Positions 17,117 to 27,814 of a stretch of 64,000 nucleotides of DNA are shown in pieces. The notes below the pieces were generated by a model. The model had not been told where the DNA came from and searched no databases. It saw nothing but the letters and a program-made list of their open reading frames with translations. The stretch is from Escherichia coli (lineage in GTDB: Bacteria > Pseudomonadota > Gammaproteobacteria > Enterobacterales > Enterobacteriaceae): NCBI RefSeq assembly GCF_003018115.1, contig NZ_CP027457.1; one strand, written 5' to 3'. Numbering within the stretch: the first letter of the stretch is position 1; every line of letters starts with the position of its first letter. The position numbers were made by a program, and so were the translations under genes.

Positions 17117-17860
17117 ATGACACAGACTGAATCAGCGATTCTGGCGCATGCCCGGCGGTGTGTGCCAGCGGAGTCGTGCGGCTTCGTGATAAGCACCCCG
17201 GAGGGCGAACGGTACCAGCCCTGCGTGAATATCTCCGCAGAGCCGGAGGCGTATTTTCGTATTGCGCCGGAAGACTGGCTGCAGGCACAGATGCAGGGGG
17301 AGATTGTGGCGCTGGTCCACAGTCATCCCGGTGGTCTGCCCTGGCTGAGCGAGGCGGACCGGCGGCTGCAGATAAAGAGTGCCCTGCCCTGGTGGCTGGT
17401 CTGCCGGGGTGAAATTCACCGGTTCCGCTGTGTGCCGCACCTGACCGGACGGCGCTTTGAACACGGTGTGACGGACTGTTACACCCTGTTCCGGGATGCA
17501 TACCATCTGGCGGGGATTGAGATGCCGGATTTTCATCGCGAGGATGACTGGTGGCGCAACGGTCAGAACCTGTACCTGGACAACCTGGCGGAAAACGGCT
17601 TTTGCCGGGTGTCTCCGTCCTGTGCACAGGCAGGCGATATTCTGCTGTGCTGCTTTGGTTCATCGGTGCCGAATCATGCCGCCATTTACTGTGGCAACGG
17701 TGAACTGCTTCACCATATACCTGAACAACTGAGTAAACGGGAGAGGTATTCTGAAAAATGGCAACGACGAACGCATTCTGTCTGGCGTCACCGCCACTGG
17801 TCCGCATCTGCCTTCACGGGGATTTACAACGATTTGGTCGCCGCATCAGTCTGTATGTGA
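17117..17860 (+). CDS. K: Tail tip assembly protein K (JAMM/MPN-like HSHPGG motif; NlpC/P60-like C-terminal region)
   Basis: Internal ATG of track ORF 16856..17860; product matches lambda gpK; true start uncertain (reference lambda annotation uses a shorter form). Confidence 0.75.
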   Translation: MTQTESAILAHARRCVPAESCGFVISTPEGERYQPCVNISAEPEAYFRIAPEDWLQAQMQGEIVALVHSHPGGLPWLSEADRRLQIKSALPWWLVCRGEIHRFRCVPHLTGRRFEHGVTDCYTLFRDAYHLAGIEMPDFHREDDWWRNGQNLYLDNLAENGFCRVSPSCAQAGDILLCCFGSSVPNHAAIYCGNGELLHHIPEQLSKRERYSEKWQRRTHSVWRHRHWSASAFTGIYNDLVAASVCM

Positions 17861-18438
17861 ACACGGCAGCGGAGGCCATCCGTGCCCTGTCGCTGCAGGT
17901 GCCGGGATTCCGCTGTCAGATGAACGAAGGCTGGTACCAGATACGTATTGCCGGTGAGGATACCGCGCCGGAGGTGGTGTATGCCCGTCTTCATGAACCG
18001 CTGAGCGGGAGGGCCGTGATTCATATTGTACCGAGGCTGGCAGGGGCCGGGGGAAATGGTGTTTTTCAGGTGGTGCTGGGGGCTGCAGCCATCGTGGGCT
18101 CTTTCTTCACCGCCGGTGCAACGATGGCGTTGTGGGGCGCAGCCCTGAGTGCCGGAGGGCTGACTGCCACCACGATGCTGTTCTCACTGGGTGCCAGCAT
18201 GATACTGGGTGGTGTGGCCCAGATGCTGGCCCCGAAGGCAAAGACGCCGGAATACAAAAGTACGGATAACGGTAAACAGAACACGTATTTTTCGTCACTG
18301 GACAACATGATTGCTCAGGGTAACCCGATGCCGGTGCCTTACGGTGAAATGCTGGTTGGTTCACGACGGATATCCCAGGACATCAGCACCCGTGATGAGG
18401 GCGGAGACGGGAAAGTGGTGGTTATCGGGCGGGGATAA
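17758..18438 (+). CDS. I: Tail tip assembly protein I
   Basis: Product matches lambda gpI; overlaps K 3' end as in lambda. Confidence 0.9.
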   Translation: MATTNAFCLASPPLVRICLHGDLQRFGRRISLYVNTAAEAIRALSLQVPGFRCQMNEGWYQIRIAGEDTAPEVVYARLHEPLSGRAVIHIVPRLAGAGGNGVFQVVLGAAAIVGSFFTAGATMALWGAALSAGGLTATTMLFSLGASMILGGVAQMLAPKAKTPEYKSTDNGKQNTYFSSLDNMIAQGNPMPVPYGEMLVGSRRISQDISTRDEGGDGKVVVIGRG

Positions 18439-18678
18439 AAATAAAAAAATCCCGCAGAGTTAGCGGAGCTGCGGGAGAGAACGATGAAGATTAACGTTAT
18501 GGAGTTATTTTTCAGGCATCAAAAATGTAACGCAGCGTCATTATTGCGGCTACAGGCAATTGCCGGAAATGTGAAGAGTTTCAGAAATTTTATTCCGTCA
18601 TGACACAGGCACCCTCCGGGGTGCCTGTTGTTTTCTGGCATAAACAGATTCAGACATCAGACAGGAGAGGGGGACAGA

Positions 18679-21600
18679 GTGGGTAAAGGGGGCGGCAAGG
18701 GGCACACACCGCGTGAGGCGAAGGACAATCTCAAATCCACGCAGATGATGAGCGTGATTGATGCCATTGGTGAGGGACCGGTGGAAGGTCCGGTGAAGGG
18801 ACTGCAGAGTATTCTGGTGAACAAAACCCCGCTGACGGACACGGACGGTAATCCCGTGATACACGGTGTGACCGCCGTCTGGCGTGCCGGGGAGCAGGAG
18901 CAGACACCACCTGAAGGCTTTGAGTCCTCCGGGGCGGAAACCGCACTGGGCGTGGAGGTGTCGAAGGCAAAGCCGGTGACGCGCACCATCACGTCAGCGA
19001 ACATTGACCGTCTGCGGGTCACCTTCGGGGTGCAGTCACTGGTGGAGACCACCTCAAAGGGTGACCGTAATCCCTCTTCTGTCCGGCTGCTGATTCAGCT
19101 TGAGCGTAATGGTAACTGGGTGACGGAGAAGGATGTCACCATTAACGGCAAGACCACCTCGCAGTACCTGACGTCGGTGATTCTGAATAATCTCCCTGAG
19201 CGCCCCTTTAACATCCGGGTGGTCAGGGTGACGGCGGACAGTACCACGGACCAGCTGCAGAACAGAACGCTGTGGTCGTCATACACCGAAATCATCGATG
19301 TGAAACAGTGCTACCCGAACACGGCCATTGTGGGGCTGCAGGTGGATGCGGAGCAGTTCGGTGGCCAGCAGATGGTGGTGAACTACCATATCCGCGGCCG
19401 CATCATTCAGGTGCCGTCAAACTATGACCCGGAAAAACGCACCTACAGCGGTATCTGGGACGGGAGTCTGAAACCGGCATACAGCAATAACCCGGCCTGG
19501 TGCCTGTGGGACATGCTGACTCACCCGCGCTACGGGATGGGAAAACGCCTGGGGGCCGCGGATGTGGACAAGTGGGCGCTGTATGCCATCGGGCAGTACT
19601 GCGACCAGACGGTCCCGGATGGTTTCGGGGGCACAGAGCCGCGGATGACCTTTAATGCGTACCTGTCACAGCAGCGTAAGGTGTGGGATGTCCTGGGGGA
19701 TTTCTGCTCGGCGATGCGCTGTATGCCGGTATGGAACGGTCAGACGCTGACGTTCGTTCAGGACCGTCCGTCGGATGTGGTGTGGCCGTACACGAACAGC
19801 GATGTGGTGGTGGATGATAACGGCGTGGGGTTCCGCTACAGCTTCAGTGCCCTGAAGGACCGGCACACGGCGGTGGAGGTGAATTACACCGACCCGCAGA
19901 ACGGCTGGCAGACTTCCACGGAACTGGTGGAAGACCCGGATGCCATCCTGCGCTACGGGCGCAACCTGCTGAAGATGGATGCGTTCGGCTGTACCAGCCG
20001 CGGTCAGGCCCACCGTGCCGGACTGTGGGTGATAAAGACAGAACTGCTGGAAACGCAGACGGTGGATTTCACGCTCGGGTCTCAGGGGCTGCGGCACACA
20101 CCCGGTGACATCATTGAAATCTGTGATAACGACTATGCCGGGACCCTGACCGGCGGACGCATCCTGTCCATCGATGCCGCCAGCCGCACACTGACGCTGG
20201 ACCGTGAGGTGACACTGCCGGAAGCAGGTACATCGACGGTGAACCTGATTAACGGCCGTGGTAAGCCGGTGCGCGTGGACATCACTGCACACCCCGCCCC
20301 TGACCGGATACAGGTCAGCGTCCTGCCTGATGGCGTGGCGACATACGGTGTGTGGGGACTCTCCCTGTCGTCACTGCGTCGTCGCCTGTTCCGCTGTGTT
20401 TCCATCCGGGAAAACACGGACGGCACCTTTGCCATCACGGCGGTGCAGCACGTACCGGAAAAAGAAGCCATTGTGGATAACGGGGCCCGCTTTGAGCCGA
20501 TGTCCGGCTCACTGAACAGCGTCATCCCGCCGGCAGTGCAGCACCTCACGGTGGAGGTGAGTGCCTCAGACGGCCAGTATCTGGCGCTGGCGAAATGGGA
20601 CACGCCGCGGGTGGTGAAGGGCGTGCGTTTCAGTCTGCGCCTGACCAGCGGAAACGGTGAAAACAGCCGCCTGGTGACCAGCGCCATCACGGCGGACACG
20701 GAGCACCGTTTCAGTGGCCTGCCTCTGGGGGAATACACCCTGACGGTCAGGGCGATAAACAGCTATGGCCAGCAGGGCGAACCTGCCACCACCACATTCC
20801 GGATTAATGCACCGGCGGCACCGGCCAGCATTGAACTGACGCCGGGCTATTTTCAGATAACGGTGGTCCCGCATCCTGCGGTGTATGACCCGACGGTACA
20901 GTATGAATTCTGGTTCTCAGAAAAACGCATCACGGACACGGCACAGGTGGAAACCTCAGCCCGTTATCTGGGTACCGACAGCCAGTGGAGCGTCTCCGGC
21001 CCGCACATTAAGCCGGGGAAGGATTTCTGGTTTTATGTGCGCAGCGTCAACCTGGTGGGGAAATCTGCGTTTGTGGAGGCCAGCGGGCAGGCCAGCAATG
21101 ATGGTGAAGGGTATCTGGAAATTTTCCGTGGGCTGATAGATGAGGCGCTGCTGGGGAAGGCACTGAAAGAGCGTATTGATGCGTCAGCCCTGCGTACTGA
21201 GGTCACGCAACTGGAAGAAGACATCCGCCAGCGGCTGGAGACGGATGTTGCGGAAGTGACCCGAAAAATAGGGGAGGCGGAAAACAGCCTCACGCAGCTG
21301 GTTGCGAAAAAGAATGAGGACCAGACGCTGGCCATCGCGCAGGTGAGTCAGCAGGTGGACCGGGTGAGCAGTGAAATCACACAGACAGTCAGCCAGAGCA
21401 CGGAGGAAAACGCCAGGCAGATAGCGCAGGTCCGCCAGTACGTGGATGACAAAGGGAGTGAAATCACCTCGACCACGGATAAAAAGCTGGAAGACCAGAG
21501 CGCGACCATACAGCAGATACAGCAGGTCCAGTCAGACACGAATGATGAGCTGGCAGCGCTGTACATGCTGAAGGTGCAGAAAACGAAAAACGGCATTCCG

Positions 21601-22374
21601 TATGTTGCCGGTATTGGTGCGGGGATTGAGGATGCTGATGGCCGGACGCTGAGCAATATTCTGCTGCAGGCGGACCGTATCGCGATGATTACCCCGGAGA
21701 ACGGCAACACCACGCCGCTGTTTGTGGCGCAGGGGAACCAGCTGTTCATGAACGACGTGTTCCTGAAGCGACTGTTTGCGGTGAGTATCACGTCATCCGG
21801 CAATCCCCCGACGTTCTCCCTGACGCCGGAGGGCAGGCTGACAGCCCGCAATGCGGATATCAGCGGAGCTGTTACAGCGAATTCTGGCACGCTCAATAAT
21901 GTCACCATTAACGAGAACTGTGTCATCAGAGGGAAACTGTCTGCGAACCAGATTGAAGGCGATCTGGTGAAGACGGTGGGGAAAGCCTTTCCCCGGAATA
22001 ACAGTTATGCCCGTGGCACGATAACCGTCACGGTTTACGATGACCAGGGCTTCGACCGGCAGATTATCATTCCACCGGTGCTGTTTCGTGGGACGAAACA
22101 CCAGAACGTCAACAGCCCGAATCAGCAGTCGTACTGGTATTCAACCTGTAAGCTGCAGGTGCTGAAAAACGGGGCAGAGATTTTTCATGAACCGGCAACG
22201 GATGTCAGCCGGGTGTTCTCATCGGTGATTGACATGCCAGCAGGACGGGGTCATGTCACCCTGACGTTTAATGTGTCGTCTACCGGCGCGAACAACTGGA
22301 CACCGACGACGTACATCAGTGATTTACTGGTTGTGGTGATGAAAAAATCCACGGCGGGAATCAGTATCAGCTGA
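18679..22374 (+). CDS. J: Central tail fibre / host specificity protein J (GTG start), about 1231 aa
   Basis: In-frame GTG with GGAGAGG motif upstream inside track ORF 18628..22374; N-terminal three-quarters match lambda gpJ; distal region diverges. Confidence 0.9.
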
Positions 22375-22391
22375 CGGTTTATTAACCCGGA

Positions 22392-22418
22392 CGGGCACCC
22401 GAAGTGGTGCCTTTTTTA
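22392..22418 (+). terminator. Rho-independent terminator after J
   Basis: gggcacc..ggtgcc hairpin followed by T run. Confidence 0.6.
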
Positions 22419-22442
22419 TTGACTGAAAACAAAGAGGTAATC

Positions 22443-23066
22443 ATGCGGTATTTATACGGAGCCATTTTATTTTTTACTACCCTGCCGGCAGTAATGACTT
22501 TTCCTGCACAGGCTGCAGGCGGACACGGTGCATTTTCCGTGGGATATGCTCAGGTTCACCCGGGCGGCGTGCCGGTATTGTCCGGTACCGGTGCCCGTAC
22601 AGGTGATTTAAAAGGGATCAACGTGAAATACCGTTATGAATTCACGGACCATCTGGGCGGCATAGCCTCGCTGAGTTACGCCTCTGCGAAAAAGAGCAGA
22701 ACCACGATGACCGGGGATAAGGCATTTCATTATGAAAGTCTGCGTGGCCGTTATGTGAGCCTGATGGCGGGGCCGGTCTGGCAGGTCAGTGAGCAGCTCA
22801 GCCTTTATGGCATGGCCGGGATGGCGCACACCCGCTGGTCTGACAGTGTTCAGGATTACCGGCGTGATGAAGTGACACCGGGGGATGTCAGGGTGACCAC
22901 CACTGCCAGTGATGGCCATTCTGCACGTCATCTGACGCTGGCATGGGGGGCAGGGCTTCAGTTTAATCCGGCGGATACGGTGGCGGTTGATCTTGCGTAC
23001 GAAGTGGCCGGTCATGGTGACTGGCGAACGGATGCGTTTATTGTTGGGATTGGATACCGTTTCTGA
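22443..23066 (+). CDS. lom: Outer membrane protein Lom (Ail/Lom family)
   Basis: Internal Met of track ORF 22404..23066; signal peptide; beta-barrel ending in F; matches lambda Lom. Confidence 0.85.
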   Translation: MRYLYGAILFFTTLPAVMTFPAQAAGGHGAFSVGYAQVHPGGVPVLSGTGARTGDLKGINVKYRYEFTDHLGGIASLSYASAKKSRTTMTGDKAFHYESLRGRYVSLMAGPVWQVSEQLSLYGMAGMAHTRWSDSVQDYRRDEVTPGDVRVTTTASDGHSARHLTLAWGAGLQFNPADTVAVDLAYEVAGHGDWRTDAFIVGIGYRF

Positions 23067-23170
23067 CGGCAGATACAGCTTTATCTTCTGTAAATATTGG
23101 TATAATGAGCATGTTCATCACACCTTATGGAGTGAACTGCGTCTGAGGAAACGTAAAGTTACACTGTCCT

Positions 23171-23200
23171 GAAGCCCGTGGCATTACTGCTGCGGGCTTT
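23171..23200 (+). terminator. Hairpin plus T run between lom and tail fibre gene
   Basis: gcccg..cgggc stem followed by T run; a TATAAT-like hexamer lies about 70 bp upstream. Confidence 0.4.
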
Positions 23201-23217
23201 TTTATTGGTGGAAAGGT

Positions 23218-25068
23218 ATGACGGTTAAAATTTCTGGTGTGCTGAAGGACGGGGCCGGTAAGCCGGTACCGGGATGCACGATAGAGCTGAAAGCGCGACG
23301 CACAACGGAGACGGTGATTGTCACCACGGTGGCGTATGGTCAGCCGGGGGAAACCGGCAGTTACAGTATGGATGTTGAGCCGGGTCTGTACCGGGTGACG
23401 CTGAACACGGAAGGGTACGCGCCGTCATATGTGGGTGACATTCTGGTGAAGGCGGAGTCTGCACCGGGAACGCTGAATAAATTTCTGATGGACCAGGAGG
23501 ACGCACAGTATTACCCGAAAGCCCTTGCAGAGCTGGAAGCGGTGGCCGCGGAAATCCTGAAACGTGCGGAAGCGTCAGCGGCGAGTGCAGAGGAAGCGAA
23601 GAAACGGGCAGAGAATGCGCGGGGACCGAAGGGGGATAAGGGAGACACCGGGCCACAGGGTATTCCCGGGCCAAAAGGCGATACCGGCGAGCGGGGGCCA
23701 AAGGGTGAGCGTGGTGAGAGGGGGCCGCAGGGGCTTCAGGGTGTGAAAGGTGAACGGGGAGAGAAGGGCGAAAAAGGCGAGCCGGGAGGACCGGATGCGA
23801 CGACGGCACAGAAGGGAATTGTGCAGTTAAGCAGCGCAACGGACAGTGATGATGAAACGAAGGCAGCCACCCCGAAAGCGGTGAAAGCGGCAATGGACAA
23901 AGCGGACGGATGCCTGGAGAAAGCGAAAAACGGTGACGATATCCCGGATAAGGTGCAGTTTCTGAACACTGTGGGAGCAGCCAGAGTATACGGGTGGGAC
24001 ATTCATACGGGGGCCGGTGAATGGACCACGAGCGAGTTTGTCGCCTGGCTGAAAGCCAAAGGGGCATTTGACCAGCCTTACTGGATGATGAAGGCATCAC
24101 TGCATGCGGGATTCAATAAGGTCATCACGGATGTCGGACCGGGAAAACTTAATCTGGGTGGCTGTGTCATTGAGGTGATGGGGAAGTATGAGGCAGCCAT
24201 AGTCCGGGTCACCATTGGCGAATACGGTGCAACGGGGTTTATTAATGGCACGGTCTGTACCTGTACGGTTTACGGCGACACACAGTATTTCCACTGGCGG
24301 GTGGATTACAGCACAAAAAACAAACCGGATACGGTCAGCCAGCGGGATGCCAGCACGACGCAGAAAGGTGTGGTGCAGTTAAGCAGTGATACTGGCAGTA
24401 ATGACGAAACAAAGGCAGCCACGCCGAAGGCCGTGAAGGCGGCAATGGATGTGGCAAATGAAGCGAAAACAAAGGCAGAAGAGGCTGCAGCAGGAGGTGG
24501 TGTTCCCGGTCCGAAAGGAGATAAAGGGGACACGGGGCCGGCAGGTCCGGCTGGGCCGGGGGGCCCTCAGGGACCAAAGGGGGATACTGGCGCTCCCGGG
24601 GCAAAAGGTGAGAAAGGAGCCACCGGCGCAACCGGGCCACAGGGAGCAAAAGGGGATAAAGGTGATCCCGGCCCTCAGGGACCAAAGGGGGATACTGGCG
24701 CTCCTGGGGCAAAAGGTGAGAAAGGAGCCACCGGCGCAACCGGGCCACAGGGACCAAAAGGGGATAAAGGTGATCCCGGTCCCCGGGGGGCAACAGGCCC
24801 ACAGGGACCAGCTGGCTCACCGGCAGGTGGTTTGCATGCTGTTGGGGCATTTGTCTTTGCTCAGGCCAGTATAAGTAACAGTGAAAAATATGCCGCAGGT
24901 GCCGTGCTTGCGGGAAGTAAACTGAGAGAATGTAGCATTCAACTGGGCTCTCAGAAAGCAGCCACATTAACCGGTAATACACTGCCAGGAACATGGCGGG
25001 TCTGTAGTCCACTTCAGGTCAGTTCAATATATCCTTACTGTGTGGGGCTGTTTCAGCGTATATCGTGA
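23218..25068 (+). CDS. stf: Side tail fibre protein with collagen-like Gly-X-Y domains (Stf-like)
   Basis: N-terminus resembles lambda Stf; two copies of a conserved fibre motif (KG-I/V-VQLSS...[10 protein letters not shown]); two collagen-like G-X-Y blocks. Confidence 0.8.
24568..24783 (+). repeat. Near-perfect tandem duplication (2 x 108 bp, 12 G-X-Y triplets each) inside the tail fibre gene
   Basis: Two adjacent 108-bp units differing at a handful of positions, in frame. Confidence 0.75.
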
Positions 25069-25335
25069 AGAGAACGACGGCAGTCAGGTGGGAACCGCCA
25101 GTGTAGCACGGTAAGGGGCAGGAAACGCTGAGCAGTGCAGATGAGATACAGGCATACAGGGGGGAGAAATAACAGACAAAAAGATGGGGGACCATCACCT
25201 CCCCCATGAACTGCGTTGATTATGTCATTATTGTGAAGGTATTCATTATGCCGGGTAAATAGTGCCACGGAAAAGTTAATTCCGGAAGTGACGGAACTCT
25301 CATTTTTCGTGCATCCTGTTGATATGGATGATTTT

Positions 25336-25665
25336 TCATATTTCCGGAAGTCCGTATTTTGCCCGGGCGCGGTTGCATGCTTCATTCGCGATGCCATTTT
25401 CTCCGGACATTGCAAATTCCCGGCATGTGGACGGACGGTTTTTGTAAACAGAGCAATATGCGTTTTCACCCGGAGTTCCCGCCAGAGCGACACATCGGGG
25501 ATTTTTCTGACTGGTGCCGCGCATACAGCGATGAAAGGGGGATATTTGCTCAGTGAGACTGACCGGAACCTTTCCGCCAGCATCGTCAGCTTCTGCCCAG
25601 TAAAAAGAGACGCGGAAAAATGCACAACAGGCACCACACGTCATGCATGGATTCGGATTGTTCAT
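25336..25665 (-). CDS. YkgJ/UPF0153-like protein with C-x2-C-x2-CC motif (putative metal-binding), prophage cargo
   Basis: 109-aa ORF with CMTCGACC motif and further conserved Cys; opposite strand to phage late genes; hairpin plus T run on minus strand just downstream (about 25185..25205). Confidence 0.55.
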
Positions 25666-25830
25666 TTTTATACTATTTGTTGTTTTTTCAGCGATCAGTT
25701 CAAAGGACGCTGAAAAAAAACATTCTCCAAAATTAAATTATAACTATTTGATTTTATGGATAGAGGCATGCTTTTTACGCAAAAGTAAAAAGCATGCCAA
25801 ATTTGCTATTAACTCTTTGAATATTCAGCA

Positions 25831-26694
25831 CTAATCATCTATTTCGGTTGCCTTCTTATTCAGCAGACGAGAAGCGCGCCAGTAAACCAGCAACATCAGG
25901 CCCATTACGATAGTCAGCGTAATGCTGGTGGCTGCACCAAACGGCCAGTCACGAATATTGAGGAACTGTACCTTGATGACGTTACCGATCAGCAGGTTTT
26001 TCGCACCGCCCATCAGGTCGGACACATAGAACAGGCCCATCGCTGGCAGCATCACCAGCAGACATCCGGCAATAATCCCCGGCATCGTCAGTGGAATAAT
26101 GATGCGGATAAAAGTCTGTAACTTGCTGGCACCGAGATCGCGCGCCGCCTCAAGCAACGGCTTATCCAGTTTTTCGATACTGGAGTACAGCGGCATCACC
26201 ATAAACGGTAGCAGAATGTAAACCAGACCGATAATCACCGCACTGGGCGTGAACATGATACGGATTGGTGTGTCGATAACGCCCAGCCAGAGCAAAAACT
26301 CGTTGAGATAGCCTTTGGTGCTGAGGAAAATTTTCAGCCCGTAGATGCGAATCAGTGAGTTGGTCCAGAAGGGAACAATCAGCAGAAACAGCAGCAGCGG
26401 ACGCACCTTGTGTGGCAGCTTCGCCAGAAACCAGGCAAACGGGTAGCCCAGCACCAGGCAGGCGAGAGTGGCGATCAGCGCCATATTCAGCGAGTGCAAT
26501 AGCACTTCAAAATAGAGCGGATCGAGCAGACGCGTGTAGTTATCCAGCGTAAAGACCATTTTGACGAAACTGGCGTCGTCGCGGGTCAAAAAGCTGGTGC
26601 CAATGATCATCAGGTTGGGCAGAAAGACAAACAACACAAGCCAACCGACAATAGTGACAATCACTACATTCTGGAACTTACTTGTGTTCTTCAT
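25831..26694 (-). CDS. potB: Spermidine/putrescine ABC transporter permease PotB
   Basis: 287-aa product matches E. coli PotB except the last few residues (ends KKATEIDD here). Confidence 0.93.
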
Positions 26695-27814
26695 CAGCCA
26701 GTACGACCTCCCAGCTTTCTACCCAATTAATGGCCATTTTTTGGTCGAGAGAGTGGTCAAAGTCAGGATCGTCTTCATTAAAGAATTCGCTGACCATCAC
26801 CATCTTGCCATTTTCCAGTTCAACAACCGACTCCAGCGTCATGCCTTTGTAGTTACGCTCGCGAACGTAACCAATCAGCCCTTCAGCGTGGTTGTCGTCG
26901 TTAATCTCTTCAACACGTAAGTCTTCCGGGCGCAGCAGAACATGCAGTTTTTGCCCCGGTTCAACGGCGAAGTTAACGTAGATATTACATTCGCGGCCTT
27001 CAACGTTGGCGCGTACGCGCTGCTCGTCGAGACGTTCGATGACAGTGGCGTTAAACATATTGATTTCGCCAATGAACCCGGCAACAAACAGGTTTTTCGG
27101 CTCTTCGTAGATTTCACGCGGCGTGCCGTCTTGCTCAATGCGACCATCGCGCATCACCACAATCCTGTCTGACATGGTGAGTGCTTCTTCCTGATCGTGA
27201 GTCACGAAGACGAATGTAATGCCAAGCTTACGCTGTAACGCTTTCAGCTCGTTCTGCATTTGCTTACGCAGTTTGTAATCCAGCGCTGAGAGCGACTCAT
27301 CCAGCAACAACAGACGAGGCTTGTTAACCACCGCGCGAGCAATGGCGACGCGTTGCTGTTGACCACCAGAGAGCTGATGCGGTTTGCGTTGAGCGAAGGT
27401 TTCCAGCTGCACCATCCGCAGGGCTTCCATCACGCGGGGCGTAATTTCAGCAGCGGGGGTTTTTTGCATGCGCAACCCAAAGGCCACATTTTCGAACACG
27501 GTCATGTGGGGGAAAAGTGCGTAGCTTTGGAAAACAGTGTTCACATAGCGGTTTTCCGCCGGAACGTGGGTGATGTCCTCGTTATCCAACATGATGCGTC
27601 CGGAATCAACAGTTTCCAGACCTGCAATCAGGCGAAGAACGGTTGTTTTACCGCAGCCAGAAGGGCCAAGCAGCGTGAGGAACTCGCCATTGTTGATAGT
27701 CAGATCCAGCTGGGGAATGACCTCTTTACCATCAAAGCATTTGCGAATTCCCGCCAATTGCACCAGCGGTGAAAGCGAACTCGGTTGTTTATTCAATTTT
27801 TTACTCTGTCCCAT
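26678..27814 (-). CDS. potA: Spermidine/putrescine ABC transporter ATPase PotA
   Basis: 378-aa product matches E. coli PotA; Walker A and ABC signature present. Confidence 0.97.

Follow-up and report, generated by a model that had tools for sequence, protein, structure and literature searches.

The J protein of a lambda-like Escherichia coli prophage: an extended helical shaft and a receptor-binding domain of the A8 family

When a lambda-like phage meets a bacterium, it is the fibre protein J that decides whether the cell can be infected. The lambda-like prophage family transfers virulence genes between E. coli strains that produce Shiga toxin (STEC), and chimeric J proteins are already in use for targeting DNA-delivery particles to E. 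coli in the gut. In lambda itself, the fibre comprises four parts, namely two FNIII domains, the alpha-helical shaft (AHS, residues 809-861; hereafter the shaft), a beta-prism straight fibre and an Ig-like receptor-binding domain (RBD) with four bottom loops (PMC11101478, Ge et al.). Lambda gpJ binds LamB, and upon this binding the upper helix of the shaft (809-840) shortens and residues 841-861 turn into beta strands atop the prism; the shaft then folds back, so that the FNIII domains are released and the tip opens (PMC11101478). The lambda fibre holds the tube ~17 nm off the cell (PMC12617516).

Other receptors have been reported within the same protein family. In particular, OmpC is the reported receptor of the J protein of lambda h434, the classical OmpC-using host-range variant (PMC11101478), and lambda J is reported to gain the use of OmpF via point mutations (PMC11101478). 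A8, an engineered lambda J with a natural C-terminus, delivers DNA to cells that lack LamB, and lamB ompC double-deletion cells receive DNA from it only if OmpC is supplied (PMC11338833). A second tested chimera, 1A2, has an OmpC-allele range unlike that of A8 (PMC11338833), which implies that specificity within such families shifts. The natural RBD of A8 is of the type carried by phages 2H10, Lys8385Vzw, PhiR70_1 and phi330; the last of these, a long-tailed Stx2a phage, fails on a Keio ompC mutant, a defect that complementation repairs (PMC12502783). The PDB entry 9wcb holds "A8 gpJ 713" together with three chains named outer membrane porin C.

Here we consider the J gene in a stretch of 64,000 nucleotides of E. 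coli DNA (contig NZ_CP027457.1, assembly GCF_003018115.1), referred to below as the window. Measured against the above systems, this J is ordinary in kind: it has the lambda domain order, a shaft module of the long type and an RBD of the A8 family, and represents a common natural variant.

Gene J and its counterpart in lambda

Gene J occupies positions 18679..22374 of the window (plus strand) and encodes a protein of 1231 aa. Its reading frame opens at 18628, and the true start is the GTG codon at 18679, with a purine-rich stretch just before it; the protein that begins here matches the N-terminus of lambda gpJ. The best match among PDB sequences is lambda gpJ itself (8iyk, 1132 aa), which HMMER aligns in two collinear stretches: residues 1-836 correspond to lambda 1-838 (E = 0, 1422 bits), and residues 937-1231 to lambda 838-1131 (937-1230 by HMMER, with MAFFT in agreement). 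An initial annotation of this DNA, made from the letters alone, had held that J matches lambda gpJ over most of its length, and the collinearity of 1-836 and 937-1231 with lambda bears this out. Identity to lambda amounts to 73% over residues 1-798 and to 58.9% over 937-1083, the beta-prism part.

The Pfam families follow one another in the order PF24421, PF24489, PF09327 and PF12421 (every E < 1e-23), and lambda gpJ (8iyk, 8xcg-8xck) has the same domain order and the same families, PF12421 included. Specifically, two Ig/FNIII domains at residues 609-712 (PF24421, E = 3.8e-41) and 714-816 (PF24489, E = 2.3e-38) are encoded at 20503..21126; the beta-prism central straight fibre spans residues 944-1071 (21508..21891; PF09327 Phage_Tail_Tip, E = 7.3e-24); and the C-terminal Ig-like RBD, which belongs to the BP-4795/A8 allele family, spans residues 1084-1231 (21928..22371; PF12421, E = 1.1e-38), all on the plus strand. 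Upstream of J, candidate ORFs lie at the positions of the lambda tail genes H-M-L-K-I, and downstream J is followed by a Lom/Ail-like outer-membrane protein and then by a collagen-repeat side tail fibre (stf). Related E. coli loci have the same annotated gene order around J, and the equivalent gene in other E. coli genomes is annotated gpJ. With its 3.7-kb frame uninterrupted and collinear with lambda, J is an intact gene for a lambda-type tail-tip fibre, borne by a lambda-like prophage of E. coli.

The intergenic gap between I and J (18439..18678) measures 240 bp, where lambda has 60 bp, BP-4795 ~246 bp and E. coli JNE141411 914 bp, and it has the look of a site of variable insertion. Within the gap lies a 39-codon ORF (18484..18603, plus strand; MKINVMELFF...) with a Shine-Dalgarno-like sequence, GGGAGAG; directly after this ORF, and upstream of J by 50 nt, comes a terminator-like hairpin with a T run (18605..18628), and another such hairpin is found on the minus strand (18467..18451). 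Neither Rfam nor PHROG gave a match in the gap.

The extended helical shaft

Upstream of the RBD, J departs from lambda in its shaft, which in lambda is 100 residues shorter. A block of 100 aa that is absent from lambda J (residues 837-936; 21187..21486, plus strand), as delimited by the HMMER and MAFFT alignments, is placed exactly between the counterparts of lambda 809-840 and 841-861, and both ends of the shaft, the FNIII-proximal and the fibre-proximal one, are kept relative to lambda. Since the block falls within the AHS, and since Pfam finds no domain over residues 817-943 of J, it is an extension of the existing lambda shaft (from ~53 to ~146 residues), not a foreign domain. The initial annotation had described a Q/E-rich, heptad-like coiled-coil insertion at about 21100..21600. 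This interval brackets a real insert but is too wide, inasmuch as the insert comprises 300 nt and not ~500, and the insertion is more exactly described as the lengthening of a helical shaft present in lambda as well.

The commonest residues of the block are T, E and Q (12 each), with V following at 10; it contains two glycines and not a single proline. Over residues 806-965, hydrophobicity has a periodicity peak at 3.65 residues, which was reached by none of 2000 shuffles and which fits a 29/8 or an 11/3 repeat more closely than the 3.5 of a true heptad. AlphaFold2, applied to the C-terminal 433 residues of J as a monomer with a 21-row alignment, predicts two short helices (809-832) and, after them, a single helix that runs without a break from residue 835 to 954 (11-24, 27-34 and 37-156 in the numbering of the fragment), so that the extended alpha-helical shaft would comprise residues ~809-954 (21103..21540, plus strand). 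The pLDDT is 85-90 over roughly 839-898 and 75-96 across the RBD, and drops below 50 in the beta-prism; the mean over the whole model is 65. Thus, the periodicity and the continuous helix obtained by structure prediction, a check that the initial annotation had proposed, both speak for an amphipathic-helical segment, one that is better characterised by a repeat nearer to 29/8 or 11/3 than by the label "heptad-like".

An alpha helix rises by 0.15 nm per residue, and the block, if fully helical, would add ~15 nm to the fibre. Packing of the shaft as a trimeric coiled coil appears plausible; the structure model itself is that of a monomer.

Part of the shaft is repetitive at the protein level. 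Self-comparison reveals three tandem repeats of 29 residues (878-906, 907-935 and 936-964; 21310..21570, plus strand): when residues 806-975 are compared with themselves, the best diagonals lie at offset 29 (score 50) and offset 58 (score 43), as against a mean of 26 (sd 4, maximum 43) in 200 shuffle controls, all of which are exceeded by offset 29. The third copy (936-964) is the counterpart of lambda 838-866; hence, part of the extension is an old tandem duplication of the very segment that switches conformation in lambda. The age of the repeats follows from the DNA, where Tandem Repeats Finder detects no 87-nt period, so that the repeats are visible in the protein only.

A metagenomic fragment, P0122 (538 aa of J), suggests a helical shaft longer still, in which the repeat unit recurs in additional copies; the C-terminus of this fragment is unlike that of lambda. 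This fragment contains exact internal duplications, which point to a possible misassembly, and it is not relied on here.

The receptor-binding domain and its likely receptor

The last 148 residues of the window J (1084-1231) share 47.6% identity with the lambda RBD, from which they are separated by three indels, each adjoining a predicted loop or lying in one, including a 4-residue deletion and a 5-residue insertion. As judged from this alignment, the domain is substantially different from that of lambda and yet clearly homologous to it. The divergence of the last ~140 residues from lambda, noted in the initial annotation, is thereby confirmed, and a high identity to the lambda domain, which would have spoken for a shared receptor, is not found.

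The relationships within the family are graded. The window RBD is 96.6% identical to that of BP-4795, 89.2% to that of 4A7, 77.0% to that of A8 and 2H10, 75.7% to that of phi330 and 45.5% to that of h434; the A8 RBD, in turn, is 100% identical to those of phage 2H10 and several Stx1a phages and 98.6% identical to that of phi330. For the C-terminal part of J, the best match among solved structures is "A8 gpJ 713" (9wca/9wcb), which scores 444 bits as compared to 304 for lambda, and the alignment with A8 runs over 295 residues without a gap. Within the RBD, 34 of the 148 residues differ between the window and A8. These substitutions are not enriched in the predicted loops (9 of 50 loop positions as against 24 of 83 in strands; Fisher p = 0.21), and the long loops are, if anything, conserved; in particular, GANNWTPTT, MPAGRG and the family-specific 5-residue loop insertion are nearly unchanged.

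The initial annotation had proposed that this phage uses an outer-membrane receptor different from that of lambda, and the placement of the RBD in the A8/2H10/phi330 allele family supports the proposal, with OmpC as the candidate. Because the tested members of this family, A8 and phi330, need OmpC, we consider OmpC the most likely receptor of the window RBD, and probably the actual one, by homology. The OmpC dependence of A8 and phi330 is experimental, whereas that of the window phage is predicted from the sequence. The phage would probably prefer particular OmpC alleles. Should it use OmpC, its RBD type differs from the one by which h434 does so.

Alternatively, the RBD might recognise another outer-membrane protein, such as OmpF, LamB or some other porin, despite its A8-like family. 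The identity to the tested allele is only 77%, and near-identity to any allele with a determined receptor is lacking (77.0% for A8, 75.7% for phi330); lambda J can be redirected, for instance to OmpF, by a small number of changes (PMC11101478), and the distinct OmpC-allele range of the 1A2 chimera indicates that specificity moves within such families. We nevertheless regard this alternative as unlikely, considering the ungapped alignment with A8, the shared 5-residue loop insertion and the near conservation of the long loops. Besides, the RBD of 4A7 is intermediate (89% identical to the window, 82% to A8), which suggests a graded series of alleles rather than a functional jump. No receptor data for BP-4795, the 96.6% relative, or for the PhiR phages were found in the literature searched. 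If the allele uses OmpC, as we favour, a receptor could be predicted for the BP-4795-type RBD alleles of many STEC prophages.

Shaft length classes, exchange of modules and frequency

Comparison of J proteins reveals at least three classes of shaft length. The short class includes lambda, 2H10 and 4A7 (1132 aa) as well as h434 (1137 aa); the medium class, with 26 additional residues, includes BP-4795 (1158 aa) and phi330, whose annotated CDS of 1042 aa is N-terminally short; and the long class, with 100 additional residues, includes the window J (1231 aa) and PhiR49_2 (1232 aa). These classes combine freely with RBD alleles. Specifically, BP-4795 ORF72 and the J proteins of long-tailed Stx1a/Stx2a phages (~1158 aa) share the RBD of the window (96.6%) but have a shaft extension of 26 residues only; the A8-type phages, which differ from the window by the 34 RBD substitutions, have a short (2H10) or medium (phi330) shaft; and h434 joins its distant RBD to a short one. 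Conversely, PhiR49_2 and PhiR40_1 have the long shaft of the window along with another RBD allele, 67% identical and without the 5-residue loop insertion. The joints of such an exchange can be seen at the DNA level: a block that has been replaced, measuring 361 nt in the window (21119..21479) and 142 nt in BP-4795, is flanked on either side by DNA in which the two are 91% identical at the nt level.

Taken together, these data make it likely, in our opinion, that J is the central fibre of a lambdoid prophage in which shaft and RBD are exchanged as modules, the shaft serving as a spacer and the RBD binding OmpC. In this scenario, a trimeric central tail fibre of lambda gpJ domain order, encoded by a prophage adjoining potAB, would have had two of its modules, the helical shaft and the RBD, swapped by recombination. 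The shaft block, made up in part of 29-residue duplications of the refolding segment of lambda (841-861), would serve as a rigid spacer that lengthens by ~15 nm a fibre holding the tube, in lambda, ~17 nm off the cell, and the RBD, as a sister allele of the A8/2H10/phi330 domain, would mediate irreversible adsorption to OmpC instead of LamB.

The long shaft is not rare in E. coli genomes. As counted by a 351-nt stretch containing the insert (at least 80% coverage), the insert is present in J of 720 out of 5426 complete E. coli genomes (13%), and the long shaft occurs together with a window-type RBD in 37 genomes (at least 80% coverage of nt 20900..22374); 14 genome records agree with this segment at 99% or more. 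The best-matching genomes with both modules belong mostly to STEC-associated serotypes or isolates, e.g. O91, O113:H21, O104:H21 and O178:H19. The exact sequence of the C-terminal 433 residues is already in NCBI under automatic names, and the full insert was seen in few clusters when representative proteins were searched. PhiR40_1 and PhiR49_2 are its sole carriers among 50,697 phage records, the insert of PhiR40_1 being 90% identical to the window. The shaft that in lambda transmits the receptor signal thus comes in at least three lengths; the longest is present in 13% of the complete E. coli genomes, yet hardly any isolated phage has it.

A published study of defence employed PhiR40.1 as an infectious phage (PMC13190303), so that a J protein with a long shaft can work. 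This bears on the view that the window J is a relic of a defective prophage with no working fibre, for which the terminator-like hairpin 50 nt upstream of J could be cited. We find this view highly improbable: a related long-shaft J works in PhiR40_1, the 3.7-kb frame runs collinear with lambda and without interruption, the adjacent tail genes, lom and stf have candidate ORFs, and the above 14 records (at least 99%) and 37 genomes (at least 80% coverage) share the J segment.

It is harder to decide what, if anything, the additional length is for. The 100 extra residues may have no tuned function at all, being a tolerated by-product of unequal recombination or duplication that has spread by mosaic exchange. 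We rate this as a possibility to be taken seriously, albeit somewhat doubtful. The 29-residue repeats are a substrate for unequal crossover, the three or more length classes occur with several RBD alleles, and the P0122 fragment, possibly misassembled, suggests that shafts can grow longer still. In addition, shaft class shows no link to plating host in a sample of eight PhiR phages, too small a number for a firm conclusion: phages with a long shaft plate on ECOR13, those with a medium shaft on E. coli C and ECOR13, and those with a short shaft on ECOR13 and K-12. However, the insert retains 90% protein identity between the window and PhiR49_2 while the adjacent RBD has diverged to 67%, it lacks proline and keeps an unbroken helical periodicity, and it is present in 13% of complete E. 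coli genomes. Conservation, helical pattern and frequency suggest that the long shaft is maintained; any adaptive role of its length is an inference.

A more specific suggestion is that the shaft is a length-variable module made of duplicated copies of the segment that in lambda refolds from helix to beta strands upon receptor binding, and that their number (~1, 2 or 4) sets both the reach through O-antigen or capsule and the signalling from the receptor to the opening of the tip. We offer it as a speculation with a rather low probability; if true, it would make the shaft a tunable trigger and spacer, previously undescribed. Limited literature searches turned up nothing relevant on J shaft-length variation, and this polymorphism seems to be the one under-explored aspect of J, its role apparently unasked so far. 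The role would be cheap to test with the existing tools of lambda engineering.

Among the PhiR phages, PhiR63_2 (L010 831..4312) has an annotated J that ends early, at 1090 aa, with the RBD match continuing in another frame, a sign that close to the 3' end of J there is either a frameshift or an error of sequencing; this phage is reported to plate on ECOR13.

The stretch 17700..27700 around J is matched at 80% coverage or more by none of the complete E. coli genomes searched, so that this particular mosaic is absent from the complete-genome collection. Downstream of lom, the side tail fibre gene (23218..25068) encodes collagen-like Gly-X-Y repeats with weak matches to models of Scl/Lcl collagen-like adhesins, an arrangement typical of the "prophage tail fiber N-terminal domain" proteins of STEC prophages. 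At 25800..27800, the right end of the prophage adjoins potB/potA.
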